Part shown: piece by piece, positions 34,201 to 50,492 of the stretch | Position numbering within the stretch: the stretch's first letter is position 1 | Layout of the letters: each line of letters starts with the position of its first letter | Source: Bacteroidales bacterium | GTDB lineage: Bacteria; Bacteroidota; Bacteroidia; Bacteroidales; UBA12077 | DNA: 64,000 bases | Reading direction: 5' to 3' | Assembly (NCBI GenBank): GCA_028282585.1 | Contig: JANQHR010000028.1 | Coordinates: forward strand, 1 to 64,000 | Translations under genes and position numbers: made by a program | Notes under the pieces: model-generated | The model's input: only the letters and a program-made list of their open reading frames with translations | The model's database searches: none | Told to the model about the DNA's origin: nothing

Positions 34201-34287
34201 ATAAAAACCCGTAAACATAAGAGCCGCAGCACTAAGAAGTATAAAGAACTTATTGTTCAAGGAAAATTTTATAATATTATTTAACAT
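31192..34287 (-). CDS. CzcA/CusA-family heavy-metal RND permease
   Basis: DVFPDL, VDDAIIDVEN, FLPEFNEG and RLHPILMT motifs; 1031 aa. Confidence 0.93.
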   Translation of the reverse strand: MLNNIIKFSLNNKFFILLSAAALMFTGFYTAQRMDVDVFPDLTAPTVVVMTDAHGMAAEEVERMVTFPIETAVNGATDVRRVRSVSSQGFSFVWVEFDWGTDIYKARQVVSEKMVTLAGQMPLNIGQPMLAPQSSVMGEILFIGLQSDSTSLMDLRTIADWNVKPVLLATGGVSQVTIIGGDYKQYQVLADPIKMKYYGVSLEELATVCEGISNNSAGSVVREYGNEYVVRGIGKTFDLEQLRNSYVKTLNGRPVLVNDVAEVKIGSAVKMGYASQNAKPSVILSISKQPNTNTLKLTENIEKNLEELRKTLPADVTLDSEIFRQADFIEKSVYNVQRALIEGAIFVILILFIFLGSFRTTIISVIAIPISLLGTIIVLKLLGLNINTMSLGGMAIAIGSLVDDAIIDVENVYKRLRQNHKLPKKERESPFHVVYEASKEIRASIIYATFIIIAAFVPLFFLTGMEGRMLKPLGIAYIVSLCISTIVAMTLTPLLCKLMLSNERYLIRKEKDSWFITKLNRGYIKTLEWVLRYKKVVLFGAIGLFIISLVALSTMGRSFLPEFNEGALTISVISKPGISLEESNRLGNLIETELLAIPEVSSTARRTGRGELDEHSLTTNSAEIDVNFELDERSRDEFMADVRDKLAGVPGIAATVGQPLGHRIDHMLSGTRANIAIKLFGTDLNKMFTIGNQIQNTIASVPGLVDVNVEQQVEIPQIQIKANREMLARYGISMNTFNEFVELAFAGEKLGDIYEGQRKFDLIIRLNKDYTESIKGIRSALIDTEDGKKVPLEQVANIVSVAGPSSISRENVQRKVVISANVAERDLRSVVTDIQKEINESITLPENYMIQYGGQFESEARASQTLMLVSAIAILIIFLLLYQELKDLKLAAIIMVNLPLALIGGVFTIFFTSGIISIPSIIGFITLFGIATRNGILLMSHYQQLELQGVPLKTYITSGSANRLHPILMTALTAALALIPLAIKGDVSGNEIQSPMAKVILGGLLTSTLLNIYLVPVIYYLIHKKEIKDEN

Positions 34288-34299
34288 AGTATTTCAATT

Positions 34300-35820
34300 T
34301 TAGTGAACATGTCCTGCATGAGGGTCTAAACTATTTGAAACTGCAGCCAGTTTTACAATAATCGCACCTTTTGTAACTATCCTGTCCGTTTCTTTAATTC
34401 CGGTAATGATTTGCGTTTTTATTCCATCGGATAACCCGATTTTCACCTCTCGTTTTTCAAACATCTCAGGTGTAATCTGTACAAATACAAAATAGTTAGC
34501 TTGCTCTTCCACCAATGCAGAATTCGGCACTAATAAGGCTTTTTCTTTTGAGTTAGTTTTAATAAATATTTCTACAAAACTTCCGGCTAAAAAGTTCTCA
34601 TTGTCATCAATCTGAAAATTTACAGGTATTAAAAATCCTTCATCTCCATCAATATGTTTACCATAAGAAAGTAACTTGCCATTTAATTCCCTTTCTGAAT
34701 AGTATTTATTATTTGTAGTTGATTTTATATTGAATGATGTAATTGAGCTTAAGTAAGGGAAATAACTTTGCTGAACTTCAGCTTTTACAATAAGCTTATG
34801 TTCTTCTTTGCAAACAGAAAATAAAGCTTCACCAGCTTCTACATATTGCCCATTTTCCACATATACATGGTTAATTGTACCTTTCTCAGAAGAAAAAACA
34901 ACCTGTCCACTCTCATTAAAATTACTTTCTAAATTCTCGAACACAGCTTTTGCATTTTCATAAATAACCTTGGCTTCTTCTACTTCTTTTTCTGAAACAA
35001 TTTGATTTTGCGATAAAGCCAGTTTTCTTTCATAATCTGCTTTTGCAGCTTCGAAATTGTTTTTTGCTTCCAGAAATCGAACTTCTGCGTTATCGTTTGC
35101 TAAACCATTGCCGGAAATAGTTAAAAATGACTCGCCGCTTTTTAACTCCTGCCCCTCAAGAATATTCTTATGAAATTTAACTACTCCATTGGTTTTAGCC
35201 GTAATTAGTGTTTCGCTGTTTTGATCTGGTAAAAGTTGAGCTGATGTTTTAATGACTTTTCCAAAGTAGTCAAAAGATGGATATTCGGTTCTAAAATCAA
35301 TTTTCCAGGACTGCTCCTTCGTAAAATTAATAGCATTTACATGCTCAGATTGTTTTTTATTAGCTATATGAATTGCTGAATGTTCATCGTCATAAACAAC
35401 TATTTCTGTTTCAATTATATGCTTTTTATCAGAATTAATTTCAAAAGTTAATCTTCCGGAACCACTCATTTCGGGTTTTAGGGAAAATTTAAAAATCCCT
35501 GGAGTTTCGCTCGTTTCAACTGTCTGTTTATTTTCACCACTTCCAACTTTTAATATTGCAGTTACCGAAGCATTAGTTAGAGGTTTAAAGCCTGGTATTG
35601 AAGTAAAATGAGCAACTATTTCAGAGTCATTACCTTTTGAAAATGGATCTGCTTCTGCAAATAACTCATAATAATTTGAATATTCAATTAGTTGAAGTTT
35701 TACGTCACCATGATCGTAACTGCTATGATCATGATCGTGTTCATGATTATCTGATTCTTTAATACTACAACTTACTGTAAATATGGTCAGAATCAGAATA
35801 AATATTGAAACTTGTTTCAT
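34300..35820 (-). CDS. RND periplasmic adaptor (CzcB-like) lipoprotein with His-rich termini
   Basis: Lipobox TVSC, HEHDHDH, C-terminal PHAGHVH; upstream of the RND permease. Confidence 0.9.
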   Translation of the reverse strand: MKQVSIFILILTIFTVSCSIKESDNHEHDHDHSSYDHGDVKLQLIEYSNYYELFAEADPFSKGNDSEIVAHFTSIPGFKPLTNASVTAILKVGSGENKQTVETSETPGIFKFSLKPEMSGSGRLTFEINSDKKHIIETEIVVYDDEHSAIHIANKKQSEHVNAINFTKEQSWKIDFRTEYPSFDYFGKVIKTSAQLLPDQNSETLITAKTNGVVKFHKNILEGQELKSGESFLTISGNGLANDNAEVRFLEAKNNFEAAKADYERKLALSQNQIVSEKEVEEAKVIYENAKAVFENLESNFNESGQVVFSSEKGTINHVYVENGQYVEAGEALFSVCKEEHKLIVKAEVQQSYFPYLSSITSFNIKSTTNNKYYSERELNGKLLSYGKHIDGDEGFLIPVNFQIDDNENFLAGSFVEIFIKTNSKEKALLVPNSALVEEQANYFVFVQITPEMFEKREVKIGLSDGIKTQIITGIKETDRIVTKGAIIVKLAAVSNSLDPHAGHVH

Positions 35821-35908
35821 TTTATCTAAAATTTATTATGTATTTAATATGAATTCAAGTTAGAAGTTAATATTAACCTCTAAGCTTCTATCTATGTATA
35901 TAGTTGTA

Positions 35909-36316
35909 TTAACCTATAGATGGTGGTCCTCTGAGGTGATTTGTTTTCGGTAATTGTTCAAAAACAATTTTAGTATGGAAAGTAAAATTATCCGATTTTT
36001 CTGTAATTGGGTATGAAAAAAAGGTACTTTCATTATTTGCTATAAAAGTTTTATCTATTGAAATTCCCGTTAAAACGTCTACATGGAAATGGCACACATG
36101 CTCATGGCGATCATGATTACATTTATGAACCTGTTCATTGTTCAGATCATCATCGTGATTGTGAGAATGGTGGCAATCGTTATGGTGGTCATGTGAATGG
36201 CTCCTATCCGAATAAAACTTCTCGACATGATGGTGATGCGGAATAACGCTATGGGCAAAGATAATTGCCCACGCTAAAAATAAAATAGATAATATTATTT
36301 TTTTGTTCCTTATCAC
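35909..36316 (-). CDS. His-rich leader protein (DUF6769-like) ending in an RGPP arrest-like motif
   Basis: TM/signal helix, IPHHHH, 19 His and 3 Cys in residues 22-78, RGPP at residues 129-132; first gene of the efflux operon. Confidence 0.8.
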   Translation of the reverse strand: MIRNKKIILSILFLAWAIIFAHSVIPHHHHVEKFYSDRSHSHDHHNDCHHSHNHDDDLNNEQVHKCNHDRHEHVCHFHVDVLTGISIDKTFIANNESTFFSYPITEKSDNFTFHTKIVFEQLPKTNHLRGPPSIG

Positions 36317-36320
36317 AGGT

Positions 36321-36328
36321 CAAATATA
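36321..36328 (-). promoter_or_regulatory. -7 promoter element implying a leaderless mRNA
   Basis: Minus strand TATATTTG-acct-GTG. Confidence 0.65.
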
Positions 36329-36357
36329 ATGAATAATTCCATTTTTACTATGATATG

Positions 36358-36384
36358 AAAAAGGGCACCTGGTTAAAAGTGCCC
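36358..36384 (-). terminator. Intrinsic terminator after ABC permease 1
   Basis: Minus strand GGGCAC-N10-GTGCCC followed by TTTTT. Confidence 0.65.
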
Positions 36385-36405
36385 ATAAAATACATTTAAT
36401 TTTAT

Positions 36406-38775
36406 TTATTCATATTTAAGAATGGTTGCAGGATTAGCTCTAGATGCTTTTAAAGATTGATATAATACTGATATCTGGGCAATAAACATAACAAGGATTC
36501 CTGCTAATAAAAAAACGTAGTAATCAAGTCCTGTTCTGTAAGAAAAATTCTGCAGCCATTTATCCAAATAAAAATATGCAAATGGCCAGGCTATTATCAT
36601 CGAAACTATTACCCATTTTGTAAATTCCCATGTTAGCATTCTTGTAATTGTTTGACTGGAAGCTCCGTGGGCTTTTCTTATTCCTATTTCTTTTGTTCTT
36701 CTTTCTGTCATATATGATGCTAACCCAAACAACCCTAAACAGGATAGAAATATGGCTATTGCGGCAAAAATTCCAAAAAGGCTACCTAACTTTTGTTCAG
36801 ACTTATAAAGTTTATCATATTCTTCATTCAAAAACTTAAAATCCATAGGAAATTCACCATTAAACTGATTCCATACTTCATTAATTTCCTTAATTGTCTT
36901 TTGTATTTCTGTACCATCAATTTTTATGAATATATAACCATATACATTTTTATTTAATGCAAGTACTAATGGTTCAACAGGTCTGTGTAAGGATTTAAAA
37001 TTAAAATCTTTCATAATTCCAATTATGTATCCCTTTGTATCCCAGAATTCAAACCATTTACCAATTGGCTCTTTAAGTTTCATTTGTTTTATTGCAGTTT
37101 CATTTAAAATAAAATTAGAAGAATCGGCAGGCCTGCTAAGATCGAAGTTTCTGCCTTCGATAAGATTTATATCAAAAGTTTGAACATATTCATGATCTGC
37201 AAAATACCAGTGAATTAGAACATGATCTTCTTCAGATTGTGTAGTATCCCTATCTTCCCAATCAATTCCTGTTGTAGAATTAACTGTATAAGTTGGAATA
37301 TTATTTGAATAAGTAACATTACTTACACCGCTTAGATTTTTTAATTCGGTTTTTAATGAAAAATAGTTATCATATAAATCACCTCTTATAGATGTATAAA
37401 GAATCTGTTCTTTATTAATTCCCAAATTTCTTTTTTGTATATAATTAAGTTGTTTGTAAACGAAAAAAGTTCCAATAATTAAGGCAATAGATAAAGTAAA
37501 TTGAAATATAACAAGTACTTTTCTAAAAATCGATGATCCTGATTGAACATCTCCTTTTAGCACATTAACAGGGATAAAAGAAGATAAATAAAATGCCGGG
37601 TAACTGCCTGCCAATAATCCCGTGAATAATAGAATTAATAATAAGCCGTATAAAAATTGACCGTTTGAATAATTAACTTCTAAAGCTTTACCGGTAAACT
37701 GATTTATATAAGGTAATAGTAACTCAACACTTATTATTGCTAAAAAATAGGAAATAATGGTCAATATTAATGATTCTCCAATAAATTGAAATATTAACTG
37801 TCGCCGTGAAGCACCTGAAACTTTTCTAATTCCTACTTCGCGAGCCCTTCTGGTTGCCCGGGCTGTTGAAAGATTCATGTAGTTAATAACGACAATCAGT
37901 ATAATTATTAAACCAACAACAGAAAAAAGATAAACATATTGATATTGTATTTCGGTATGTGAATATACATCAATATTAAAATCAGATTTTAAATGTATCT
38001 CACTTAATGGCTGTAAATAGTAAGTTTGATTAATCTCATAATCGTAAACCTCTTGTGCACTTTCCGTAAACTTACTATTCATACTTTTATAATCTGTATT
38101 ATTATCAAATAGTACATATGCATAATAATAGTTATTGTTCCAACTAATATTCCATCCAATTTCTTCCAATCTTTTAAATGGAACTAAAGCATTGAATTGT
38201 AAATGAGAATTTGACGGCACATCTTCAACAACACCAACTACAGTATAAATGCTTGATTGGTTTATCATTATATCTTTTCCTATTGGATTTTCCTGCCCAA
38301 AGCATTTTCTCGCAAATGATTCTGTAATAAGCATACTGGTGGTTAACTCCTTAAATTGTTCAAGAGATCCTTCTTTAATCCTAAAACTGAAAATATCAAA
38401 AAACTCCGGATCGACATAACCGTATCCGTCATCATAAAACTTTTTATCACCGCACGTAAACAATAGCTTACTTGTATATGGCCTAAATCTTGCCGATTTT
38501 AAAATTTCCGGAAACTCTTCATCAAACTTTTTTACCATTGGTGCCGGAGTTGCAGCAACTTTAAACTCACCATCGGTATGTTGTTGAGCTTGTACTAACC
38601 TATATATGGATTCATAATTTTCATGGAATTTATCATAATTAAGTTCATCTAAAATCCATAAATAGATAATCACCGAACATGCTAAGCCCGTTGCTAAGCC
38701 TAAAATATTTATTACCGTGTATCCCTTATACCGAATTAAAAACCGATATGCTATAAGTAAATAATTCCTTAACAT
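36406..38775 (-). CDS. MacB/FtsX-like ABC transporter permease (duplicated-domain type)
   Basis: REVGIRKVSGA and KEIGIRKAHGAS motifs, ends NPATILKYE. Confidence 0.92.
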   Translation of the reverse strand: MLRNYLLIAYRFLIRYKGYTVINILGLATGLACSVIIYLWILDELNYDKFHENYESIYRLVQAQQHTDGEFKVAATPAPMVKKFDEEFPEILKSARFRPYTSKLLFTCGDKKFYDDGYGYVDPEFFDIFSFRIKEGSLEQFKELTTSMLITESFARKCFGQENPIGKDIMINQSSIYTVVGVVEDVPSNSHLQFNALVPFKRLEEIGWNISWNNNYYYAYVLFDNNTDYKSMNSKFTESAQEVYDYEINQTYYLQPLSEIHLKSDFNIDVYSHTEIQYQYVYLFSVVGLIIILIVVINYMNLSTARATRRAREVGIRKVSGASRRQLIFQFIGESLILTIISYFLAIISVELLLPYINQFTGKALEVNYSNGQFLYGLLLILLFTGLLAGSYPAFYLSSFIPVNVLKGDVQSGSSIFRKVLVIFQFTLSIALIIGTFFVYKQLNYIQKRNLGINKEQILYTSIRGDLYDNYFSLKTELKNLSGVSNVTYSNNIPTYTVNSTTGIDWEDRDTTQSEEDHVLIHWYFADHEYVQTFDINLIEGRNFDLSRPADSSNFILNETAIKQMKLKEPIGKWFEFWDTKGYIIGIMKDFNFKSLHRPVEPLVLALNKNVYGYIFIKIDGTEIQKTIKEINEVWNQFNGEFPMDFKFLNEEYDKLYKSEQKLGSLFGIFAAIAIFLSCLGLFGLASYMTERRTKEIGIRKAHGASSQTITRMLTWEFTKWVIVSMIIAWPFAYFYLDKWLQNFSYRTGLDYYVFLLAGILVMFIAQISVLYQSLKASRANPATILKYE

Positions 38776-38806
38776 AATTTATCAAATTTAATATTTACTA
38801 CTAATA

Positions 38807-38822
38807 GTCCAAAAAGATGCCA
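38807..38822 (-). promoter_or_regulatory. sigma54 -24/-12 promoter of permease 1
   Basis: Minus strand TGGCAT-CTTTT-TGGA; -24 is good, -12 deviates; next to a bEBP gene. Confidence 0.55.
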
Positions 38823-38875
38823 AATAAAAAAAAGTCTCATATTCAATATTTTATAAAAATTATACTTTGTACATT

Positions 38876-38915
38876 TGTAACATAATGTTACATTAAAGTG
38901 TAACAATACATTACA
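38876..38915. promoter_or_regulatory. Tandem bEBP enhancer sites (TGT-N11-ACA)
   Basis: TGTAACATAATGTTACA (38876-38892) and TGTAACAATACATTACA (38899-38915). Confidence 0.7.
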
Positions 38916-38918
38916 TTT

Positions 38919-40277
38919 ATGGTAGAAAATAAACTATTGATAATTGATGATGATCAACAATTACTTGATACACTTTCATTAGTACTAAAATATGAGTTTG
39001 AAAAAATCAATACTATTAAAAATCCAAATCTGGTTCCGGAAATAATTAAAAAAGAACGATTTGATGTTGTTTTATTAGATATGAATTTTTCGGCTGGTAA
39101 AACAACTGGAAATGAAGGGTTATTTTGGTTAAGAAAGATTAAAGAATTTGATCCCGAAGCTACGGTTGTTATGATTTCTGCTTATGCAACCATTGATTTA
39201 GCAATAGAAATAATGAAAGAAGGTGCTGTGGATTTCATTTTGAAACCCTGGGAAAATCAAAAGTTAATTGCCACCCTTAAGTCTGCATGTAAGCTAAGTA
39301 AAACTAGGGATGAATTAGCGAAAAGTGAAGCTCTAAATACCTCAATTAATAATGACCTGGAAAGCGAACTCTCTTTAATGGACAGCAGTTCTCCGAAAAT
39401 GCAAAAAGTACTTGATACAATTAAAATTGTTGCGCCAACAGAAGCGAATGTATTAATATTAGGAGAAAACGGAACCGGAAAAGAAGTCATTGCACGAGAA
39501 ATCCATCGTAACTCATTGCGCAAAAACAAATATTTAGTGCAAGTTGATCTTGGTTCAATATCCGAAAGTTTATTTGAAAGTGAATTGTTCGGACACGTAA
39601 AAGGAGCTTTTACAGGTGCAATAGCAAATAAATTAGGCAGGTTTGAAATTGCCAGTGAAAGTACATTATTTTTAGATGAAATAGGAAACATTTCCATTAC
39701 GCATCAAGGTAAGCTATTATCGGCAATACAAAATAAAGAATTTTACCCGGTAGGAAGTGAAAGAATTGTAGAATCTAATGTGCGTATAATCTGTGCAACA
39801 AATAAAAACCTGGAGTTATTGGTTGAAGAAAATAATTTTCGTGAAGATTTACTTTATAGAATAAATACAATTCAATTAGAAATACCACCATTAAGAGATC
39901 GAAAAGAAGATATTAGAAAACTTGCAGAATTTTTCCTTAATCGATTCAACGATAAATACAACAAACATTGCCGGCTGCAGAAAAGTACAATCAAATATAT
40001 TGAATCTTATGATTGGCCGGGAAATATCAGAGAATTAAAACATACAATTGAAAGAGCTGTGATTCTGGCAAACAAAGATCAACTTATAATAGATCAGATT
40101 GGTTCTGTAAAGCATGGAACTGAGATGAAAGCTGAACGTAAAACCTGGAATGAAATCGAGAAATTTTATTTAAGGAAAACTTTTAATAAATATCATGGAA
40201 ATATATCTGAAATTGCACGTGAATTAAATCTTTCGCGTCCATCCATATATCGTAAAATCAAAAAACATGGTTTATAA
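38919..40277 (+). CDS. NtrC-family sigma54-dependent response regulator
   Basis: Receiver LLDMNF, GENGTGKE, GAFTGA, WPGNIREL, Fis-type HTH. Confidence 0.95.
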   Translation: MVENKLLIIDDDQQLLDTLSLVLKYEFEKINTIKNPNLVPEIIKKERFDVVLLDMNFSAGKTTGNEGLFWLRKIKEFDPEATVVMISAYATIDLAIEIMKEGAVDFILKPWENQKLIATLKSACKLSKTRDELAKSEALNTSINNDLESELSLMDSSSPKMQKVLDTIKIVAPTEANVLILGENGTGKEVIAREIHRNSLRKNKYLVQVDLGSISESLFESELFGHVKGAFTGAIANKLGRFEIASESTLFLDEIGNISITHQGKLLSAIQNKEFYPVGSERIVESNVRIICATNKNLELLVEENNFREDLLYRINTIQLEIPPLRDRKEDIRKLAEFFLNRFNDKYNKHCRLQKSTIKYIESYDWPGNIRELKHTIERAVILANKDQLIIDQIGSVKHGTEMKAERKTWNEIEKFYLRKTFNKYHGNISEIARELNLSRPSIYRKIKKHGL

Positions 40278-41601
40278 AAATTTCTACATAGGAATCCTGA
40301 TTATCGCAGTTTCAATTATTGGAACAGCTTACGCAATTAGTTGGATTGGTTTTAATGAGGAATATATTCATACTTTAATATTTTTACATATATTATTTGG
40401 CCTGGAGTTTGTATGGCTCATCACTTTTGTAAATAAAACCAATAGAATGCTGGATAGGTTTTTCTCTTCGATTAAAGAAGATGGCACATCTATTAAATTT
40501 GAGAGCACTATGGAAGAAAGCACCTTTAAATTACTTTCAAAAAGATTAAACAATGTTGTTGAAACCATTCAAAAAACGAGGATTGAAAAAGAAAATGAAC
40601 ATTACTTCTTAAAATATTTGGTTGAGCATATTAATACCGGAATAATTTCTATACTTAATAATGAAAGAATAGATTTATTAAATAAGACGGGAGTAAATAT
40701 TTTAGGCACTCATGAGTTATATAAAATTACAGACTTGAAAAAATTCGGCAAACAATTCTATAACAACATTATACGAATCCGAGCTGGAGAATATTTTCTA
40801 ACCAAAATCATAATTCAAAACGAAATTAAAGACATATCATTACGAGCATCTGAATTTAAGCTTTTTAAAAATCAAGTGAAATTAATATCATTTCATGATG
40901 TCCACCAAGAGATAGAACAAAAAGAAATAGATGCATGGCAAAAAATTATAAGAATACTTGCGCACGAAATTTCAAGTTCTGTCTCGCCAATTCGTTCGTT
41001 AAGCGATCATTTAATTACATTAATTAATAAAGATGATCCAAAATATTTAAATGATGTTAAAGATGGTGTAAATATTATTCATCAAAGAAGTGACGGGTTA
41101 ATGAACTTTGTTTCGAAATACCGACAAGTAACAGATATTCCAGAACCTATATTAAAACCAATATCATTAAATGAAATTATTAGTGATTTAGAGCTTATAT
41201 CCAGCGCAGAATTTAATTTAAAATCGTCGTTAAAAATCCATAGACCCGAAGAAGAAATCTTAATTAATGCCGATAAGAATTTAATTATGCAAGCTGCTTT
41301 AAATATTATAAGAAATGCATCAGAAGCCGTTAAATCAATTTCCAATCCGATGATTAAAATTACAGGAAATGTGAATTACAATAAGGCCGTTCTGGAAATT
41401 ACTGATAACGGTATAGGAATTGACTTCGAAGATCTTGAAAATGTCTTTATACCTTTTTTCAGCACAAAAGAAAATGGTTCGGGTATTGGTTTAGCAATTG
41501 CAAAGCAGTTAATTAATAAACAGGGAGGCCGAATTGATATTCAATCAAAACCGGATAAAGGTACATCCGTTAAAATTTATTTCGAATACTATAAAAATTA
41601 A
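40267..41601 (+). CDS. Sensor histidine kinase (2 TM, PAS-like, HATPase)
   Basis: LAHEI, NIIRNA, DNGIG, PFFSTK and GSGIGL motifs. Confidence 0.92.
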   Translation: MVYKNFYIGILIIAVSIIGTAYAISWIGFNEEYIHTLIFLHILFGLEFVWLITFVNKTNRMLDRFFSSIKEDGTSIKFESTMEESTFKLLSKRLNNVVETIQKTRIEKENEHYFLKYLVEHINTGIISILNNERIDLLNKTGVNILGTHELYKITDLKKFGKQFYNNIIRIRAGEYFLTKIIIQNEIKDISLRASEFKLFKNQVKLISFHDVHQEIEQKEIDAWQKIIRILAHEISSSVSPIRSLSDHLITLINKDDPKYLNDVKDGVNIIHQRSDGLMNFVSKYRQVTDIPEPILKPISLNEIISDLELISSAEFNLKSSLKIHRPEEEILINADKNLIMQAALNIIRNASEAVKSISNPMIKITGNVNYNKAVLEITDNGIGIDFEDLENVFIPFFSTKENGSGIGLAIAKQLINKQGGRIDIQSKPDKGTSVKIYFEYYKN

Positions 41602-41655
41602 TATTTCTTTCACTTTAATGTTGTAATTATAGTATAATTTTGAGTCAAAAATCAC

Positions 41656-41994
41656 ATGCGTATTAAAACCGTATATTTCATTTTGTTTATAATAGGTAGT
41701 ATTGTTCCTTATTATTTCTTTCTTCCATTTATTATAAAACATGGTTTAGATTTCAAATTATTAATTTCTGAATTATCTGCTAATAATATTAGCCTGTTCT
41801 TTGGTTTCGATGTAATAATATCCGCTCTGGCCCTGATCATTTATATATTATATGATCAAAACAAAATTAAAGTCCGGTTTTATGGATTAGCTATTATAGC
41901 AACGCTTACTATTGGTGTTTCTAGTGGATTACCTTTGTATTTGTTACTGAAAGAGAGAACAAAAGATTTCCTGAGAAAGCTTAATGGTAATTAA
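41656..41994 (+). CDS. Small membrane protein (DUF2834-like)
   Basis: Three TM segments, GVSSGLPLYLLLKE motif. Confidence 0.7.
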   Translation: MRIKTVYFILFIIGSIVPYYFFLPFIIKHGLDFKLLISELSANNISLFFGFDVIISALALIIYILYDQNKIKVRFYGLAIIATLTIGVSSGLPLYLLLKERTKDFLRKLNGN

Positions 41995-42060
41995 TACCTC
42001 TAATTTTAATATTTCTAATAAAAAAATTGGTATTTTAGAAGTGACTAAAAATGTATTATT

Positions 42061-43392
42061 ATGAGCGATTTTCTTTTACTTCTATTGGTGATGATACTTG
42101 GAGTATTACCACTTTCTATTCTTGTTTACTGGTATAAATACCGGGGAACAATAATATACAAAACAGCAATTGCAATTCTTTCCACCAATTTATTGGTAAC
42201 ATTTGCCGGGTTCGTTGTAGGTGAATATGGCATTAAGTTCATATTTTTCTATATTCCGTTTGGCTATTTGACATTGCTATTGGGGAACATGATTTTCAAG
42301 AAATATGTACAAAGGCCATTAAGGGGATCAATTGAAGTATTAAAAAAGATTTCGGAAGGTGATTTAAATGTAAAGATTAATGAAGAGCTCATAAATATTA
42401 ATGATGAAACCGGACAAATGAATAAGGTTTTGGATAAAATGGTTCATAATTTAAATGACACTGCAGAATTTGCCCGTCAGGTAGGAGAAGGGAATTTAGA
42501 TCATGAAATTCAATTGTTAGGAGATTCTGATCATTTAAGAAGTGCTCTTCTGGAAATGAGGGAAAAGCTTAAGGAAGCCGCAGAATTGCAAGAAGAAAAA
42601 CGTATTGATGAAGAAAAAAGATCTTGGGCAAATCAGGGATTAGCTAAACTAAATGAGATTTTAAGAAAGCAAGAGGATGCTAATGAATTATCGTACCAGA
42701 TTTTAAGCTTTCTAATCAATTACATGGATGCTAACCAGGGAGGTATATTTATCCGCACAGCAGAAGACCCGAAAAATATTTTACTTGAACTTAAATCATT
42801 TTATGCGTTTGACAGGCGTAAATTTATCAAGAAGACATTTGAATGGGGAGAAGGTTTGGTAGGAAACTGTGCATTAGAAAAACAAACAATTCATTTAACC
42901 GAAATTCCCGATAACTATATTGAAATTACAAGCGGATTAGGTGGAGCTAATCCGCATAGTCTTCTACTAGTGCCAATGAAAATGGAAGAGGAAGTGCTCG
43001 GTATTGTAGAAATTGCTTCTTTTAACGAGTTTGAAAAATATCAGATAGAATTTTTAGAGCAAGCATCTTTAAGTATAGCAAGCTCTTTAAATATGGCTGA
43101 AACAAACCAACGTACCTCAGAATTACTTAAAAAAACTCAGCAACAAGCTGAAGAAGTGGCTGCCCAAGAAGAAGAAATGCGTCAAAATATGGAGGAATTA
43201 CAAGCTACGCAAGAAGAATCTACAAGGCGAAATGAAGAAGTTGAGAGGCTATTGGAACAATCGCAACAACAAGCAGAAATAATTGAATCTAAAATTACTG
43301 AATATGAAGAACGCGAAGTTACGTGGCAGGTTAAATTAGATTCTGCAAATAAAAAGATAAAAGAACTCGAAGAAAAATTAAAAAAGAAATAA
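42061..43392 (+). CDS. Membrane HAMP-GAF coiled-coil signalling protein
   Basis: Three N-terminal TMs, two HAMP-like segments, GEGLVG GAF motif, AQEEEMRQNMEELQATQEE. Confidence 0.82.
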   Translation: MSDFLLLLLVMILGVLPLSILVYWYKYRGTIIYKTAIAILSTNLLVTFAGFVVGEYGIKFIFFYIPFGYLTLLLGNMIFKKYVQRPLRGSIEVLKKISEGDLNVKINEELININDETGQMNKVLDKMVHNLNDTAEFARQVGEGNLDHEIQLLGDSDHLRSALLEMREKLKEAAELQEEKRIDEEKRSWANQGLAKLNEILRKQEDANELSYQILSFLINYMDANQGGIFIRTAEDPKNILLELKSFYAFDRRKFIKKTFEWGEGLVGNCALEKQTIHLTEIPDNYIEITSGLGGANPHSLLLVPMKMEEEVLGIVEIASFNEFEKYQIEFLEQASLSIASSLNMAETNQRTSELLKKTQQQAEEVAAQEEEMRQNMEELQATQEESTRRNEEVERLLEQSQQQAEIIESKITEYEEREVTWQVKLDSANKKIKELEEKLKKK

Positions 43393-43419
43393 AACTATCT
43401 GAATTATATAAGTTTTAAA

Positions 43420-43530
43420 GAAGCTGTCCAAAAAGTAGAAATGTTGTTCATATTTCGACAAGCTCAATATGACAACTTTCTGATAATCTGACTGTCACAC
43501 TGTCTCGATAACCATCGGGAGTCAAAGTAT
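43420..43530. repeat. REP doublet, copy 2, preceded by the GAAGCTGTCCAAAAAGT arm
   Basis: CATATTTCGACAAGCTCAATATGACA and TGTCACACTG[TCTCGATAACCATCGGGA]GTCAAAGT. Confidence 0.75.
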
Positions 43531-43542
43531 AGACATGAAATA

Positions 43543-43582
43543 AGAGGCTTCTTTTGCTTTACAACATAGAAGCTTCTTTTTT
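43543..43582 (+). terminator. Probable terminator after the GAF gene
   Basis: AGAGGCTTCT...AGAAGCTTCT followed by a T tract. Confidence 0.55.
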
Positions 43583-43596
43583 ATGTAAACCAAAAG

Positions 43597-44622
43597 ATGA
43601 AAATAAAAATCATATTAAATCTGGTCATTATCTTCATATCTTCTCTATCATTTCCGGTTGGTGCCCAAAATGAATTAGAAGTAACAGAATTATCTTATAA
43701 ACTTTATGCTATAATAAATCCTCAAGGAGGAAATATTGCATTTCTGGTTACTCGTAAAGGTGTTGTAGTTGTTGATGCCGGATCAACGCCGCAAAATGGA
43801 AGAGATATTGTCGAAGCAATTAGGTCGGTCACTAAAAAACCAATAAAGTACTTAATTCTTACCCATCTGCATGGGGATCACGTAAATGGAGTTGCGGGGT
43901 TTCCTGAAGGCATAACTATCATTGCTCATAAGGACCTGGAAGAAAATAATATAAAATTCAATAAAGAGAATTTAGAAAACTACATGGAAAATGTTCTTCC
44001 TGAACACCTCACTAATCTGCGTAAGCAGCTTGATTCTATAAGTGATAAAGAAAGTGAAGCGTATTTAGAATTAATGCAAACCTATAATTCGCATGTAGAC
44101 TATTTTGAAAATATTAAACAAATTGAATTTAGAAAACCGGACATTACTTTTGAAGATTATTATAGGTTTAAAATTACTGATCAGCGCATAATGCTTGAAT
44201 ATCCGGGACCTGGACATACCAACGATAATATCGTTGTTAAATTTTCCAATCATAATGTAATTCATACTGGTGATTTAGTTTTTAATGGTTCGTTTCCTTA
44301 CACAATTGTTGAACATGGAGTGGATATATACAACTGGATAAGAATATTAGATGATCTTTATAAGGAAAATATTACAACTGTTGTTCCCGGCCATGGTGAA
44401 ACTGGTAGAAAAATTGCATTAAAAGATCAATCTGATTATTTTAAAGATCTATCTCACCAGATTGAAGCACTTAAAAATGCAGGTTATGATTTGGGAGAAA
44501 TAAAAAGGAAAATAAAACATTCTGATTTTAGATTAAAAGGAAATGAAAATCAGCTTTCAGTGAATATTGAGGTAATTTATTCGGAGCTTACAAGTAAAGG
44601 AAGAGAATGGTGGAAATTTTAG
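43597..44622 (+). CDS. Secreted MBL-fold metallo-hydrolase
   Basis: Signal peptide; THLHGDH, GHT, TGDL and VPGHG motifs. Confidence 0.88.
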   Translation: MKIKIILNLVIIFISSLSFPVGAQNELEVTELSYKLYAIINPQGGNIAFLVTRKGVVVVDAGSTPQNGRDIVEAIRSVTKKPIKYLILTHLHGDHVNGVAGFPEGITIIAHKDLEENNIKFNKENLENYMENVLPEHLTNLRKQLDSISDKESEAYLELMQTYNSHVDYFENIKQIEFRKPDITFEDYYRFKITDQRIMLEYPGPGHTNDNIVVKFSNHNVIHTGDLVFNGSFPYTIVEHGVDIYNWIRILDDLYKENITTVVPGHGETGRKIALKDQSDYFKDLSHQIEALKNAGYDLGEIKRKIKHSDFRLKGNENQLSVNIEVIYSELTSKGREWWKF

Positions 44623-44624
44623 AC

Positions 44625-44664
44625 AAAAAAAGAAGAAGCTATTCTAATTAGAATAACTTCTTCT
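44625..44664. terminator. Terminator between the convergent MBL and TBDR genes
   Basis: AGAAGAAGCTATTCT / AGAATAACTTCTTCT with a flanking A7 tract. Confidence 0.7.
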
Positions 44665-44688
44665 ATACATTCTTGTAATATAACTAAC

Positions 44689-47064
44689 CTATAACATGTT
44701 TCCTATTTTAAATCCAAAATATACAGTTCTTGGCAACGATGGTCCGTATAAATATCCCGGATCTCTGTTTATTGTTACATCAAAATCGTCTTGGTAAGAA
44801 TTAAAAATATTCTTCATACCAGCAAATACTTGCATGCTTGCCCCATTTAATTTAAACTGGTAACTTAGCTTAGCTCCAAGGTCATAAAATGGATCAGATT
44901 CTCTTAACTCTCCAATTGGTTCGCCTTCACTATCTACTGGGCTTTCTGTTCCAAAATAAGGAACTAACATACTTCCCGTATACGTTCCTGATACTAATAA
45001 GCTAAATTCTTTATAGAAATCCCAATCAATTGTAAGATAACCATAATTGTTAGGTGTTCTGAAGAAATCTTTCTCATCAAATTCCTGAGCTTCTTCATAT
45101 GCACTCTGTTGAATTGTAAATCCACTGCTAAAAGCAAAATCTCCTTCAGGAACAATATTAAGTTCCATGTTAACACCGCTTACCGTAGCACCTCCTTCGG
45201 CATTAACACGCGTATATGTTACAACTCCATCTACCGGATCTCCATATTCATTGGCAAAGGCGTCAACTAAATCAGTGTAGAAACCTTCAACTAAGAAACC
45301 TGTGTAAACCTTACCCAATTGTTTATTGAAATCAAATGATAACATATAACTGTGACTGGTTTCTTGTTTTAAGTTTGGATCATTATCATGCAATACCCGT
45401 CTTGAACCCGAAGTTTCAATATGCAGATCCTCGTCAAATATTTGCGGAGCGCGATAACCTTGTGAATAACTTGCACGTGCCTGAATTATATCTAAAATAT
45501 CATATTTTAAAGTAAACCTGGGACTTAAAACATCTCCAGTTACACTATGCCCATCTACTTCATCTTCAATTTCATAATGATCATACCTAACACCTGCAGA
45601 AACACTTAAATCATTAAACTTATGTTCGTATTGTGCAAATCCACCATAAATATTTGAAACCTGATCGGCTACCAAAGTATTTTCTGTATGAGTAGTTACT
45701 ATTTCACCACTCACAATCTCATTTACAGGATATCCAAGTTTCTTGTCATTTAAAGTTTCGCCTCTATATTCAAATCCTCCTGTTAAATTTGAGTTCTTAA
45801 AATACGCTGTATACTGGGCTCCAATATTATAAGTTAATCCTTCTGTCTTTCCATAGTCTTGCAATGATTGTTCAGCTCCATAATATGAATCACGGTCAAC
45901 TTTTTGAGCGGAGATAAACATCGAAAGTTTATCACGTTCTCTGAAAAATTGATCGAACGTTACGGCTCCGGTCGTAATATTATGATCAAGAGCTTCAGCA
46001 ATATCAGCTTGGTGTTTTGGTAAATCAAAATCATTTCCACCTCTTCTGTCTTCTTTTATATTAAAGAAATCAATAGCTATTTTGTTTCGATGCGTAAAAC
46101 GGTGAAATACTCTTGTTCCTACCGTTTGATTGTTTAATTGAGTAATCTCGGAGAACCCATCATCATTTGCGTCAAAAAACTCATGATCTCTGTAGTAACC
46201 ATATAAAGCCATACCAGTTCTGCTATCTGAAGATACCAGGGAAGTATTAAAATTTAAATTATAATCAAAAGCAGGATCTCCACTGCCATCAACACCTAAT
46301 CCCATAAAACCGGAAGAAGCTCCTACTTCATAAGAATTGTTTATAGGGTCCTTTAAAATTAGATTAATTGTTCCTGCAATAGCATTACTTCCATAAAGTG
46401 CAGAACCACCACCTCTAATAATTTCCATTCTTTCAATCATATTAGATGGTATAAGTTCTAAACCATAAACTCCCGCTAAACCACTAAAAATAGGTCGGCT
46501 GTTAATTAAAATTTGAGAATAAGGACCTTCCATACCATTCATTCTTACCTGAGAGAAGCCACAATTCTGGCAATTGTTTTCCATCCTTAAACCAGGAGAA
46601 AAATTTAAACCGTCGCTAATTGTAGCAGTTTGTGCTACTTCAAAAAGACGCGGAGTTAGTGTGTTTACAATTACAGATGCTTCCGTTCTGTTTTTTTCAT
46701 TTCTATCGGCTGTAACCACAACTTCTTCTAATCCTAAAACATCATTTTCTAAATGAATTTTCAATTCGATTGTATTTTTCTCTTTTAATTCTACTTCCTG
46801 GCTAAATGGTTTATACCCTATAGCTGATGCCACTAGAGTAAAATTACCAACTGGCATATGAATAAGGTTAAAATGGCCTGTTTCATCTGTCGCTGTTCCA
46901 ATGGTTGTTCCTTTAAGCACCACAGTAGCGAATGGTAAATGTTTTCCTTCAGAATCGACAACATGCCCAACAATATTTGCATCCGTTCTATTTCTTTGTG
47001 CCGAAGCATTTATTGATAAAAAAAGAATTAAAATTAGTTGTGATATATATATAGTTTTTTTCAT
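44689..47064 (-). CDS. TonB-dependent receptor, probably for a transition metal
   Basis: N-terminal carboxypeptidase-regulatory-like domain, LEEVVVTA, plug with CQNC, IERMEIIRGGGSALYGS, FDEDLH. Confidence 0.9.
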   Translation of the reverse strand: MKKTIYISQLILILFLSINASAQRNRTDANIVGHVVDSEGKHLPFATVVLKGTTIGTATDETGHFNLIHMPVGNFTLVASAIGYKPFSQEVELKEKNTIELKIHLENDVLGLEEVVVTADRNEKNRTEASVIVNTLTPRLFEVAQTATISDGLNFSPGLRMENNCQNCGFSQVRMNGMEGPYSQILINSRPIFSGLAGVYGLELIPSNMIERMEIIRGGGSALYGSNAIAGTINLILKDPINNSYEVGASSGFMGLGVDGSGDPAFDYNLNFNTSLVSSDSRTGMALYGYYRDHEFFDANDDGFSEITQLNNQTVGTRVFHRFTHRNKIAIDFFNIKEDRRGGNDFDLPKHQADIAEALDHNITTGAVTFDQFFRERDKLSMFISAQKVDRDSYYGAEQSLQDYGKTEGLTYNIGAQYTAYFKNSNLTGGFEYRGETLNDKKLGYPVNEIVSGEIVTTHTENTLVADQVSNIYGGFAQYEHKFNDLSVSAGVRYDHYEIEDEVDGHSVTGDVLSPRFTLKYDILDIIQARASYSQGYRAPQIFDEDLHIETSGSRRVLHDNDPNLKQETSHSYMLSFDFNKQLGKVYTGFLVEGFYTDLVDAFANEYGDPVDGVVTYTRVNAEGGATVSGVNMELNIVPEGDFAFSSGFTIQQSAYEEAQEFDEKDFFRTPNNYGYLTIDWDFYKEFSLLVSGTYTGSMLVPYFGTESPVDSEGEPIGELRESDPFYDLGAKLSYQFKLNGASMQVFAGMKNIFNSYQDDFDVTINRDPGYLYGPSLPRTVYFGFKIGNML

Positions 47065-47210
47065 CGTATTTTTTTTACAGTTAACTAGATTAACCTTTGA
47101 TTAATGCAAAATATACTTTCGCATATAAAATATTTTATTTTGAAATTAAGTGCCTGAATTATTATTTAATCCTAAACAATTAAATAATTGAATAAATAAT
47201 TAAACTTGAA

Positions 47211-47588
47211 CTAAACTTGTAATGATTGTGACGGCGGTCCACGAGTTTTACGTAAACCCAGGTTAATTGAATTAGAAAAGATACATGGCTTACTTAACAA
47301 TTCTAATTCAACATCTGCATTGAAGCGAAGATTTATAAAATTCTCAAAAGTTGTATATTGCTCAAATGAACTTAAGTAATCTAAGTCTATTCTATTGTGT
47401 CTATGCTTTGCAAGCGGATCATCTTTTTCCGCTCCTTTATCAAAAGGGTGTGCGTGAAAAATTATTTTTTCTGATTCAGTTTTGTGAGCATGAAGAAAGA
47501 ATGTGGAATTAACAATAATTCCTCCCATTATTAATAGGAATAATGAAGTAATAATTCCCTTTCTAATATGCTTATCTCTTCCTTTCAT
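47211..47588 (-). CDS. HxH-rich leader protein ending in an RGPP arrest-like motif
   Basis: TM helix; HAH, HAHP and HRH motifs; RGPP at residues 116-119; upstream of the TBDR. Confidence 0.78.
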   Translation of the reverse strand: MKGRDKHIRKGIITSLFLLIMGGIIVNSTFFLHAHKTESEKIIFHAHPFDKGAEKDDPLAKHRHNRIDLDYLSSFEQYTTFENFINLRFNADVELELLSKPCIFSNSINLGLRKTRGPPSQSLQV

Positions 47589-47596
47589 TCTGTTGT

Positions 47597-47604
47597 CAAA
47601 AGTA
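47597..47604 (-). promoter_or_regulatory. -7 promoter element implying a near-leaderless mRNA
   Basis: Minus strand TACTTTTG-acaacaga-ATG. Confidence 0.6.
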
Positions 47605-47764
47605 AATCAAGCCTTTTAAACCCGCAATACCATATGTTAGGTATTTTGATATTTTAATAACACTGTTAATTTTATAACATGAAGAAACCATAATTACCTA
47701 CTAAGACTTTCCATGTTAGCATACGTTTAATCGAAAAATAGTTCTATGTTTTAAAACACAAAAT

Positions 47765-49114
47765 CTAGAATGTTAATCGAATATTTGTTCCGGCTTCCGA
47801 AGAACTAACATCTATTGAACCTTTATGTAATCGCATTATTTGGCGAGATAAACTTAAACCTATACCAGAACCTTGATCTTTTGTTGTGAAGAACGGTATA
47901 AAAATCTTATCTATAATATCTTGATGAATACCGGGTCCATTATCATTTATACATATTATTACTACATTTCTTTTATCCTTATACGAAACTATTCTTATCT
48001 CACGACTTTCTTTATTACCAAATCCTTCAATCGAGTTTTTAATCAAGTTGATTATTACATGTGAAAGTAATTTCTCATCTGCAATTAAAGCTAAATCATT
48101 AGGGGTAACATTAATATATGTATTGATATTACCTTTTAATAATTCTTCGCTAAATAGTTTTATAATTCTTTCTATAAATTCCTTTAACTTGATTTCATTA
48201 AAGCTTGGATTAGGCAGATTAGTAAGTTGTCTATAATTTGCAACAAAATCTTTTAATCCTATACTTCTATCCTCAATTATTTCTAATCCTTCCAACGTAT
48301 TATTAATAGTGAAATCGCTTATACTTTCTTTATCTATAGCTTTTCCTTTTTTATCTCTGAAATATTTTGAGATTGCGGTTATAGTGGTTGTTATTGGGCC
48401 AATAGAATTCATAATTTCATGAGCTAAAACCCGTATCAATTTTTGCCATGATTCAAGCTCTGTTTCATCTAACTCACTTTTTATATTCTGTATTGAAACT
48501 AATTTTATACGTTTTCCTTGTTGTATTAATTCTGTAGCATTTATTGAAAGTTGTTTAAACTCGTTATCAACATTTAACTTTAATAACCTATTTTCTGATG
48601 GTTTAATTTCTTTCAAAACTCTGGCAAACCCAGTAATTAATCCATCCAACTCGTTAATGTTTTGAATTGATTTTAGATTTAACAGTTGCCTGGTTGCTTT
48701 GTTAATTAAAATAACGTTTCCGTTTTCATCGAACCAGATTAGGCCTGTTGCCACATTCTCAATTGCAGCAGATAAATATTGCGATTTAAGAATATTCTCA
48801 ATTTCCGATTTTTTAATAACTTCTTCAATTTTATATAATGAATCATATAATTTATCAAAAGATTTTCCTTTGTTCCGTGGAAACTTTAAAAAATTATAAT
48901 CTCTATTTATTATGCTTTCGAAAAAATCTGCTAATTCATAATTAATTTTATTCAGATATCTTATCAATAATATGATCTGAATAACCAACAACAGAGAATG
49001 GTTAAGTATTAAAAAAGTTTTTTTTGTTGGTACGGAAAATGCAATTAACAAGCAGGTTGCAACCAAAAGAATTATTCTTACTATTATATTGATATAAAAT
49101 TTCTTATAAACCAT
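47765..49114 (-). CDS. Sensor histidine kinase, paralog of 40267-41601
   Basis: LAHEIMNS, NLIKNS, DNGPG and PFFTTK motifs; same MVYK start as its paralog. Confidence 0.92.
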   Translation of the reverse strand: MVYKKFYINIIVRIILLVATCLLIAFSVPTKKTFLILNHSLLLVIQIILLIRYLNKINYELADFFESIINRDYNFLKFPRNKGKSFDKLYDSLYKIEEVIKKSEIENILKSQYLSAAIENVATGLIWFDENGNVILINKATRQLLNLKSIQNINELDGLITGFARVLKEIKPSENRLLKLNVDNEFKQLSINATELIQQGKRIKLVSIQNIKSELDETELESWQKLIRVLAHEIMNSIGPITTTITAISKYFRDKKGKAIDKESISDFTINNTLEGLEIIEDRSIGLKDFVANYRQLTNLPNPSFNEIKLKEFIERIIKLFSEELLKGNINTYINVTPNDLALIADEKLLSHVIINLIKNSIEGFGNKESREIRIVSYKDKRNVVIICINDNGPGIHQDIIDKIFIPFFTTKDQGSGIGLSLSRQIMRLHKGSIDVSSSEAGTNIRLTF

Positions 49115-49121
49115 TTTCTAA

Positions 49122-50492
49122 TTAATTATGCAATCCATATTTTTTGAGTTTTCTTATTAAAGTAGTTCTGGCAATTTTTAATTCATTTGCTGTATGACTA
49201 TGATTCCATTTATGTTTTTTAAGTACTTTCAAAATGGCATGCTTCTCAATTTCATCAAGAGATAGCTTGTCTGTTGGGCTTATAAACTCATTATCAACTC
49301 GCAAATCTGAAATGGTTATTGTATTAAAGTCTGATAGAATTACCGCCTTTTCAATAGTATGCCTTAATTCTCTGACATTTCCCGGCCAGTGATATTTTTG
49401 CAGGTTCCCGATTGCACTATTATCAAATTTCATATTTGTTTTACCATATCGTGATGCGTATAAATTAAGATAATGATTTGCAATTTCAATAATATCTTGT
49501 TGTCTTTCTCTTAATGGCGGCACTTCTATTTCTATTGTGTTGATTCTATAAAGCAAATCTTCTCGAAATAAGTTGTTAGCGACAAGTTTTTTTAGGTCCT
49601 GATTTGTTGCTGAAATTAATCTCACATTTATTGGCACTTCTCTATCTGCGCCAACCTTCGTAATAGCTCTTTTTTCCAACACTGATAGCAATTTAACCTG
49701 CATTCCAATCGACAAATTTCCAATTTCATCCAAGAATATTGTTCCTCCTGAAGCAGATTCAAATTTCCCTGCCCTTTCTTCCTTTGCATCTGTAAATGCT
49801 CCTTTTAGGTGTCCGAACAATTCACTTTCAAAAAGTGTTTCACTAATTGCTCCAAGATCAACTCCAAGAAAAATCTCATCTTTTCTTAAGGATCTTCTGT
49901 GAATTTCCCTGGCAATCAACTCCTTTCCAGTCCCATTCTCACCCAATAATAAAATATTAGCATCTGTTTCTGCAACTTTATCAATTTTTGAAAAGATATT
50001 TTGCATAACATCCGATTTACCAATAATTTTTGAATAGTTTTTATTAATATTCTCAGTCAAATGCTTTTGCTTTTGTTTTAAGCTACCAACCTCTCTTATT
50101 GATTCTCTTAGTTTTAAAGCATTTTTTAAAGTTGCAATAAGTTTATTATCCTCCCAGGGTTTTAAAATGAAATCTGTTGCCCCCTCTTTCATGGCATTCA
50201 CCGCAAGGCTTATATCTCCAAATGCGGTAATCATTATGACCATAATATCCTCGTTATATTTCTTAACTTCCTTTAGCCAGAATAGTCCCTCGGTACCAGA
50301 ATTGATGCCCGTTTGAAAATTCATATCAAGCAATACAATGTCATAATCATCTTTTCTAAGTGACTCTAAAGTTAGGTTAGGATTGCTTATTGTTTTAATA
50401 CATTCAAATTCACCAGACAATAAAAGTTCTAATGCTTTCAATAAACTTTTGTTATCATCAACAATTAAGATTTTACCTTTTACGTTTTTCAA
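49122..50492 (-). CDS. NtrC-family sigma54-dependent response regulator
   Basis: LLDMNF, GENGTGKE, GAFTDA and WPGNVREL motifs; TTG start. Confidence 0.94.
   Translation of the reverse strand: MKNVKGKILIVDDNKSLLKALELLLSGEFECIKTISNPNLTLESLRKDDYDIVLLDMNFQTGINSGTEGLFWLKEVKKYNEDIMVIMITAFGDISLAVNAMKEGATDFILKPWEDNKLIATLKNALKLRESIREVGSLKQKQKHLTENINKNYSKIIGKSDVMQNIFSKIDKVAETDANILLLGENGTGKELIAREIHRRSLRKDEIFLGVDLGAISETLFESELFGHLKGAFTDAKEERAGKFESASGGTIFLDEIGNLSIGMQVKLLSVLEKRAITKVGADREVPINVRLISATNQDLKKLVANNLFREDLLYRINTIEIEVPPLRERQQDIIEIANHYLNLYASRYGKTNMKFDNSAIGNLQKYHWPGNVRELRHTIEKAVILSDFNTITISDLRVDNEFISPTDKLSLDEIEKHAILKVLKKHKWNHSHTANELKIARTTLIRKLKKYGLHN

Follow-up and report, generated by a model that had tools for sequence, protein, structure and literature searches.

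We found that two small open reading frames (ORFs) from the genome of a Bacteroidales bacterium probably encode cis-acting, metal-sensing leader peptides that arrest the ribosome at an RGPP motif of the RAPP/RGPP class, working like the known leaders CruR and CutF. The DNA analysed, hereafter the window, is a stretch of 64,000 nt (UBA12077; GCA_028282585.1, JANQHR010000028.1, positions 1-64,000, forward strand), and the ORFs are located at 35909-36316 (leader A) and 47211-47588 (leader B), A and B being working names. The initial annotation of the window had given the same coordinates, which were correct; both ORFs are on the minus strand. It had also described the two leaders as dissimilar in sequence, built to a common plan and placed before metal transporters, with a spacer of constrained length ahead of the arrest site. 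The evidence presented here consists of the architecture of the leaders, its conservation, the fixed spacer, synteny and the rarity of the terminal motif.

Leader A begins with the basic sequence MIRNKK and has one hydrophobic segment, with a Kyte-Doolittle maximum of 2.31 in a 17-residue window. After this helix it reads AHSVIPHHHH, followed by a linker rich in His, Asp and Cys, the motif C75-H-F-H78, a 50-residue stretch, L-R129-G-P-P and a tail of three residues (SIG). Leader B likewise begins with a basic sequence (MKGRDKHIRK) and has a single hydrophobic segment (maximum 2.20 in the same window); three HxH motifs, a 51-residue spacer and RGPP follow, with six residues (SQSLQV) remaining. 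The export signals of both leaders were judged solely from hydrophobicity and charge. The common plan of a basic N-terminus, a hydrophobic helix, a His cluster and RGPP near the end thus held for both ORFs, and the distances reported from the last clustered His to the Arg, 51 residues in A (H78 to R129) and 52 in B (H64 to R116), were exact. The initial annotation had extended the shared ending to RGPP-S; this part failed, as the Ser after RGPP is not conserved in family A or family B.

Each leader has 22 homologues, itself included, with E-values down to 1e-63 and 1e-54 in the two families. In family A, residues A15, W16, I19, H22, P26, H27, H29, C75, F77, D88, R129, P131 and P132 are invariant and G130 is nearly so. 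Family B has invariant N27, S28, F31, L32, H33, H35, K41, F44, H45, A46, H47, P48, E54, P58, H62 and H64, with R116, G117 and P119 nearly invariant. The family B profile matched 965 clusters (50% identity, representative library) at E<=0.001. Among 150 representatives of family B, no two of them more than 50% identical, 146 have an xxPP motif no more than 12 residues from the end: RAPP in 81, RGPP in 31, RSPP in 12, RPPP in 9 and other forms in 13. The codons used for RGPP differ between A and B, and among relatives; the motif is conserved at the peptide level.

Profile-profile comparison of A and B with hhalign returned a probability of 33% over 34 columns, all within the hydrophobic helix. 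Homology between them was therefore rejected, consistent with the lack of evident similarity noted at the outset, and the families are treated as unrelated. Neither leader matched Pfam or NCBIfam above threshold. The closest named family was DUF6769 (PF20558), against which 8 of the 22 members of family A gave hits at E<=0.01, the lowest value being 1.3e-5. Leader A itself scored 13.2 bits against it (E=0.14; gathering cut-off, 27 bits), and none of the 22 family B members matched. Among named entries of the ESM Atlas, DUF6769 resembled leader B most closely (score 0.94). Our literature search for DUF6769 returned one unrelated paper that mentions the family, and no described function.

The spacer between the last ligand motif and the Arg is constrained in length, as the initial annotation had anticipated. 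We tabulated 55 family A sequences, comprising 33 locus ORFs and 22 proteins in overlapping sets; the C-H-F motif is missing in eight of them and one further ORF is broken. In the 46 sequences with the motif, the distance from its His to the Arg is 53 residues in 41, 54 in four and 64 in one, so that 45 of the 46 have 53 or 54. By comparison, the distance from the first motif, IPH, to the Arg ranges from 88 to 110. The spacer is as variable in sequence as the earlier linker (0.39 versus 0.36), but it contains no gaps against a gap fraction of 0.21 in the linker, and all eight internal insertion columns of the family lie within the linker. In family B, one of the 22 sequences is truncated and the other 21 all have a spacer distance of 52, as do all six metagenome loci (four distinct sequences); distant relatives have 52-58. 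The distance from HxH[PFS] to the Arg is 68 residues in 81 representatives and 69 in 27, and falls within 66-73 in 145 of 146. These alignments support the view that the spacer behaves as a ruler in both families.

To place the leaders in their genome, we scanned every stop-to-stop segment of at least 40 amino acids across the whole genome (n=33,413). Only five segments carry R[AG]PP within their last 16 residues, and all five are ORFs of 123-135 amino acids with an N-terminal helix and a His/Cys cluster. Neither RGPP nor RAPP occurs in the 2,899 segments of at least 200 amino acids (1.34 M residues), where 2.7 and 2.4 occurrences, respectively, were expected. The R[AG]PP leaders are thus beyond chance. 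All five head metal-transport genes: one precedes a Czc/Cus-type resistance-nodulation-division (RND) efflux operon, three directly precede TonB-dependent receptor (hereafter TonB receptor) genes and one precedes a larger cluster. The fifth leader, in which CPVC is followed by 44 residues and RAPP, has a CruR-like spacing; it shares 7 nt with the end of the Fur-family gene that precedes it.

The genes downstream of the two families are likewise not random. A survey of 401 genomes sampled from the phylum yielded family A in 3 and family B in 8, with one matched family B locus (L044) lacking a corresponding ORF; family A was also found in 31 genome records. The next gene encodes a CzcB-type RND adaptor (22) or CusA/CzcA (9) in 31 of 33 family A loci, the exceptions being L005 and the broken locus L018. 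A TonB receptor gene is next in all seven distant family B loci tested. The window itself agrees with the initial annotation, which had placed a metal transporter after each leader: the Czc/Cus RND operon follows A, and the TonB receptor gene follows B. The adaptor encoded directly after leader A carries a His-rich stretch, HEHDHDHSSYDHGD, immediately after its signal sequence; this His-rich adaptor, like leader A, suggests a divalent cation as the substrate. The pump is equally close to CusA (476 bits) and ZneA (469 bits), which does not discriminate between metals. For the receptor, a search for the ligand found no close solved relative. Four distant family B relatives (L039, L040, L041 and L047) have a second hydrophobic segment starting 39-53 residues before the Arg, which leader B lacks.

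Both ORFs start shortly after a -7 box of the Bacteroidota type (TAnnTTTG), as first described, with gaps of 4 nt for A and 8 nt for B; the density of such boxes in the window is 0.74 per kb per strand. At leader A, box, gap and GTG together occupy 36314-36328, and the fixed sequence TTAT[AC]TTTG-N4-GTG, with the same 4-nt spacing, is present in the window and in 14 of 31 related loci (L007-L017, L019, L020 and L027). Given where transcription starts with respect to a -7 box, this fixed gap suggests that the leader A mRNA is leaderless or nearly so, with a GUG start. The terminator-like site that closes the upstream permease gene, together with the -7 box, indicates that leader A opens a new transcription unit. 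Scans found no -7 box in the 88-nt region after leader A, and neither a -7 box nor a terminator-like site in the 146-nt region after leader B. With a box before each start and none in either spacer, each leader probably heads its own transcript. No conserved operator was seen in family A on inspection by eye.

Leader B, on the other hand, is preceded by the palindrome AATACC-N8-GGTATT. Exact copies number five in the genome against 0.57 expected, and four of these are intergenic: one lies before a FeoA-FeoB gene and one before each of the three family B leaders. The window and four distinct relatives (L048, L049, L051 and L053) all have the palindrome 56-57 nt ahead of the leader ATG, whereas shuffles gave 7 of 1,300. 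Because it is common to feoAB and family B leaders, an iron-type regulon for family B is suggested, and the palindrome is probably the operator of such a regulon. These sites point to a family B that is linked to iron and subject to two tiers of control.

From these features we infer stalling, its metal dependence, its polarity and an RNA step as follows. Each leader would be the first gene of its transcript, with almost no 5' untranslated region, and the ribosome would stall at R-G-P|P, where, judging from published toeprints, its P site would be occupied by the first Pro codon and its A site by the second. With a tail of three to six residues, the leading edge of the ribosome would be at about the stop codon. 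The N-terminal hydrophobic helix would hold the nascent chain carrying the conserved His(/Cys) ligand motifs, the last of which, fixed 51-54 residues before the Arg, would sit just past the exit tunnel or in the translocon. Metal occupancy would alter the folding or tension of the chain and, through it, the duration of the stall, and the stall would be read out on the mRNA within the 88-nt and 146-nt spacers. For leader B, the likeliest logic is that of CruR: a stall at low metal would keep transcription going, and metal would free the ribosome and switch the importer off. The output of leader A would have to be inverted, either because metal lengthens the stall, as it does in CutF, or because the RNA is wired the opposite way. 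Candidates for the RNA step are Rho, an intrinsic terminator and occlusion of the start site; initiation in Bacteroidota generally does not depend on a Shine-Dalgarno sequence.

With regard to polarity, it is conceivable, although we would not assume it, that metal relieves the stall in both leaders and that the exporter is switched on because, in its spacer, stalling promotes termination and release promotes read-through. A hairpin with a T-run is present in 12 of 32 family A spacers, compared with 1.4 on average, and 5 at most, in shuffles. In locus L007, complementarity to the RGPP codons extends over both arms of the spacer hairpin (-21.7 kcal/mol, z -6.3), and modest complementarity between RGPP codons and spacer is also seen for leader A of the window (z -2.2). 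However, such complementarity is not general, and the hairpin in the window lacks a T-run. The 88-nt region folds with a z of -2.0, its weak stem taking in the adaptor AUG, and the 146-nt region, with a z of -1.2, does not exceed its shuffles. In addition, loci L021, L030, L031, L034 and L037 have perfect palindromes of the type TGATAATCATCTGATTATCA between the family A leaders and the pump genes; we take these to resemble Fur/Zur boxes, and several apparent hairpins may therefore be DNA operators rather than RNA hairpins. The excess of C over G in leader A, which might have been read as rut-like, is no more than its His and Pro codons produce and was uninformative.

Several results weigh against arrest leaders of the CruR/CutF kind. 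The terminal motif is degenerate in some relatives: RGSP occurs in 2 of the 22 family B members, KSPP and RASP in L042 and L040, and RSPP in L026. The His region of family B is highly conserved, with a mean commonest-residue fraction of 0.87, which would suit a mature protein with its own function. DUF2946 (PF11162) matched neither leader at E<=1 and nothing in the whole genome at E<=0.01, with control genomes positive, so the analogy with CruR and CutF would be one of function and not of family membership. The spacer of 51-54 residues compares with 45 in CruR. On the RNA side, terminator scans of the two spacers in the window found no intrinsic terminator, including in the one after leader A; leader-spacer complementarity across loci has a mean z of -0.43 (n=25), with 4 of 25 below -1.64; and no RNA switch linking the RGPP codons with the spacer was found to be conserved. 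A search of sequencing runs for the stretch listed no RNA run, and one DNA run that may be its source. Finally, the published arrest tests of RGPP, as given in the parts of the literature consulted here, do not cover Bacteroidota ribosomes.

Other explanations of the two ORFs fit these data less well. The loss of canonical R[AG]PP in some members, the strong conservation of the N-terminal two thirds and the size of the families (965 clusters for B) would be expected of small membrane-anchored metal-binding proteins, either chaperones or accessory subunits, that act in trans with the pump or the receptor and use RGPP as a structural or interaction motif; CutF was itself first conjectured to be a chaperone in a passage of the CruR report (PMC9426467). 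We consider this unlikely, as no element is better conserved than the C-terminal motif, which is avoided elsewhere in the proteome, and as the spacer keeps its length and not its sequence, which fits a distance requirement better than a folded interface. The leaders are also always first in the operon, with a long spacer after them, although a dual role would still be compatible with that position.

A secretion monitor of the MifM, SecM or VemP type, in which insertion of the helix frees the stall and no metal is sensed, would account for an N-terminal helix combined with a C-terminal RAPP-type motif, as described for ApdA, ApdP and ApcA (PMC7897499; PMC10951233), and the second hydrophobic segment of some distant family B relatives would fit as well. 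This is nevertheless quite improbable: the conserved residues are His/Cys ligands at a fixed distance from the arrest site, and the downstream genes are metal transporters and never Sec/YidC components, the next genes in the window encoding the RND adaptor and pump (A) and the TonB receptor (B). Moreover, the helix ends about 100 (A) or 84 (B) residues before the arrest site and would be inserted long before the stall. As for chance ORFs in AT-rich intergenic DNA, the short length, the absence of Pfam and NCBIfam matches above threshold and the GTG start of A might have suggested them, but the E-values of the homologues, the motifs, the 965 family B clusters and the synteny refute this, and its probability is negligible. 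Metal-sensing arrest leaders thus remain our preferred reading.

Table. Location of the leaders, their parts and associated features. Positions refer to the window unless prefixed; aa, amino acids.
Feature	Position	Strand	Details
Leader ORF A	35909-36316	-	135 aa, GTG start
Leader A hydrophobic helix	36254-36298	-	residues 7-21
Leader A His/Cys cluster	36083-36253	-	residues 22-78
Leader A spacer	35933-36082	-	residues 79-128; fixed length, variable sequence
Leader A RGPP codons AGA GGA CCA CCA	35921-35932	-	residues 129-132; proposed arrest site
-7 box TATATTTG	36321-36328	-	Bacteroidota-type, TAnnTTTG; ends 4 nt before leader A GTG
Terminator-like hairpin with T-run	36363-36384	-	closes upstream permease gene
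FtsX/MacB-type permease gene	36406-38775	-	FtsX, MacB_PCD; upstream of leader A
Intergenic region, 88 nt	35821-35908	-	between leader A and adaptor
20-nt hairpin without T-run	35862-35881	-	within the 88-nt region
Heavy-metal RND efflux operon	30030-35820	-	downstream of leader A
RND/CzcB-type adaptor	34300-35820	-	TIGR01730/TIGR00999
CusA/CzcA pump	31192-34287	-	TIGR00914, 809 bits
Weakly TolC-like outer-membrane gene	30030-31202	-	
Leader ORF B	47211-47588	-	125 aa, ATG start
Leader B hydrophobic helix	47493-47555	-	residues 12-32
Leader B HxH motifs	47397-47492	-	residues 33-64; H33/35, H45/47, H62/64
Leader B spacer	47244-47396	-	residues 65-115; 51 residues
Leader B RGPP codons CGT GGA CCG CCG	47232-47243	-	residues 116-119; proposed arrest site
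-7 box TACTTTTG	47597-47604	-	TAnnTTTG; ends 8 nt before leader B ATG
Palindrome AATACC-N8-GGTATT	47626-47645	.	probable operator; 57 nt before leader B ATG
Intergenic region, 146 nt	47065-47210	-	between leader B and receptor
TonB-dependent receptor	44689-47064	-	791 aa; Plug, barrel and CarbopepD_reg_2 domains
Terminator-like hairpin	44631-44664		after receptor
Further AATACC-N8-GGTATT copies in genome	C135:30473, C147:26567, C147:59519		
Third leader (L001-L003 set)	C147:59904-60275		precedes TonB receptor
Fourth leader (L001-L003 set)	C147:26605-26982		precedes DUF6686-flavodoxin-DUF2023-TonB receptor-HmuY-CobN cluster
Fifth leader (L001-L003 set)	C16:98306-98698		precedes TonB receptor and two DUF4625 genes

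Other genes surround the two loci. Paralogous pairs of a sigma-54-type response regulator and a histidine kinase adjoin both leader loci (38919-41601 on the plus strand and 47765-50492 on the minus strand), an arrangement kept solely in the closest relative, L007. A sigma-54 promoter that might serve these NtrC-type neighbours was sought and rejected: 26 matches were found against 20.5 expected, none of them near leader A or B. Between the leader loci are genes for a GAF-domain membrane protein (42061-43392) and a protein of the metallo-beta-lactamase fold (43597-44622). In 8 of 20 related family A loci tested (among L008, L010-L014, L017, L019 and L020), the leader has a GAF gene as its divergent neighbour on the upstream side.

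If the two leaders act as proposed, nascent-peptide metal sensing, which has so far been based on copper and Cys in Proteobacteria, would extend to His-based families in Bacteroidota, one of them (B) outside Pfam and the other (A) marginally within it. The five leaders of this one genome would cover uptake and efflux with two ruler lengths (44-45 and 51-54 residues), providing a natural test set for how one motif yields opposite outputs and for cytoplasmic versus trans-membrane sensing. For annotation, genes of this kind, with 110-135 amino acids, usually go uncalled or are called hypothetical, and should be read as regulatory leaders of TonB receptor genes and RND efflux operons. A broader picture may be entertained only tentatively. 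In it, family B would be a RAPP/RGPP arrest sensor with His ligands only, responding to a metal other than copper, probably iron, and forming a second, post-initiation tier under a Fur-like operator shared with feoAB and the flavodoxin/HmuY cluster; together with the unrelated family A, with its equal ruler of 51-54 residues on a leaderless GUG mRNA, it would show that Bacteroidota built a whole metal regulon, with five leaders in this genome, on one arrest motif with both polarities, and the shared ruler would indicate that metal is sensed where the translocon opens to the outside.

The best-studied counterpart is CruR (Bp2923) of Bordetella pertussis, a DUF2946 upstream ORF (uORF) in which CXXC is followed by 45 residues and RAPP (Roy et al. 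2022, PMC9426467). As reported there, the spacing is conserved to within 1-2 residues and five added residues break regulation; copper relieves the stall, upon which Rho terminates transcription before the TonB transporter gene; and the signal peptide is dispensable, the authors proposing metal-driven cotranslational folding. Like CruR, leaders A and B are small first genes with an N-terminal export signal, a ligand motif, a fixed spacer and a RAPP-type motif near the end, and they share with DUF2946-type leaders a RAPP-like C-terminal motif at a fixed distance from the ligands. In CruR, as described, RAPP lies three residues from the end and a 162-nt gap precedes the gene for the TonB-dependent transporter, compared with 88 and 146 nt here. 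CruR uses CXXC and copper, whereas A and B are His-based and known from sequence alone. Neither has a CXXC or CXXXC motif: A has one invariant Cys (C75, in C-H-F) besides its His motifs, and the ligand motifs of B are three HxH, with no pair of Cys conserved.

The terminal motif has itself been surveyed. According to the main text of Fujiwara 2025 (PMC12992588), proteomes avoid RAPP and RGPP, yet small exported proteins encoded before TonB receptors and other metal genes are enriched for them at their C-termini; both cause robust arrest, which EF-P does not relieve, toeprints placing the P and A sites at the two Pro codons; and uORFs of TonB receptor genes are called universal in Gram-negative bacteria. 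The class includes ApcA, ApdA, ApdP and seven Streptomyces lividans peptides (PMC12992588; Morici et al. 2024, PMC10951233). Leaders A and B have the features used in that survey, namely a small secretory or membrane protein, C-terminal RAPP/RGPP and a co-directional downstream gene. Its main text counts proteins by annotation class, does not describe families A and B and has no mention of efflux, RND or zinc (PMC12992588). A literature search for Bacteroidota arrest leaders of TonB receptors matched only the two Fujiwara papers, and one for an iron-linked case returned nothing specific.

CutF of Rhodobacter capsulatus provides the opposite output to CruR (Öztürk et al. 2023, PMC9973294; 2025 preprint, 10.1101/2025.02.05.636593): periplasmic copper, sensed through the translocon, prolongs stalling during cotranslational export, which unmasks the start of an oxidase gene. 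The initial annotation had known of no description of one mechanism with opposite outputs, for an exporter and an importer; CruR (PMC9426467) and CutF (PMC9973294; 10.1101/2025.02.05.636593) had already been published. The genetic contexts are not new either. The census of CutF-like proteins (fewer than 150 amino acids, PP in the last 15 residues, signal peptide) lists 5,334 proteins, 19% of them from Bacteroidota, with CusC/CzcC, CusA/CzcA, CusB/CzcB, CusF, outer-membrane efflux, TonB-like and PCuAC neighbours (PMC9973294). Leaders A and B fall under its rule, with 135 and 125 amino acids, PP 4-5 and 7-8 residues from the C-terminus and 88 and 146 nt to the next gene. Thus, the mechanism class and its opposite outputs were published between 2022 and 2025, and A and B are new, His-based members of it outside DUF2946; set against the main texts of the published censuses, the His-based families, the iron link and the common ruler may be new. 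In the portions of the CutF paper that treat them, His-only clusters adjoin HupE/UreJ and not TonB receptors (PMC9973294). Unlike A and B, CutF has CXXXC and an EF-P-dependent PPP, and it melts a stem-loop over a nearby Shine-Dalgarno site (PMC9973294). Like the reading proposed here for leader A, however, CutF detects metal beyond the cytoplasm and activates a detoxification gene, and it provides a precedent for the opposite output of that leader.

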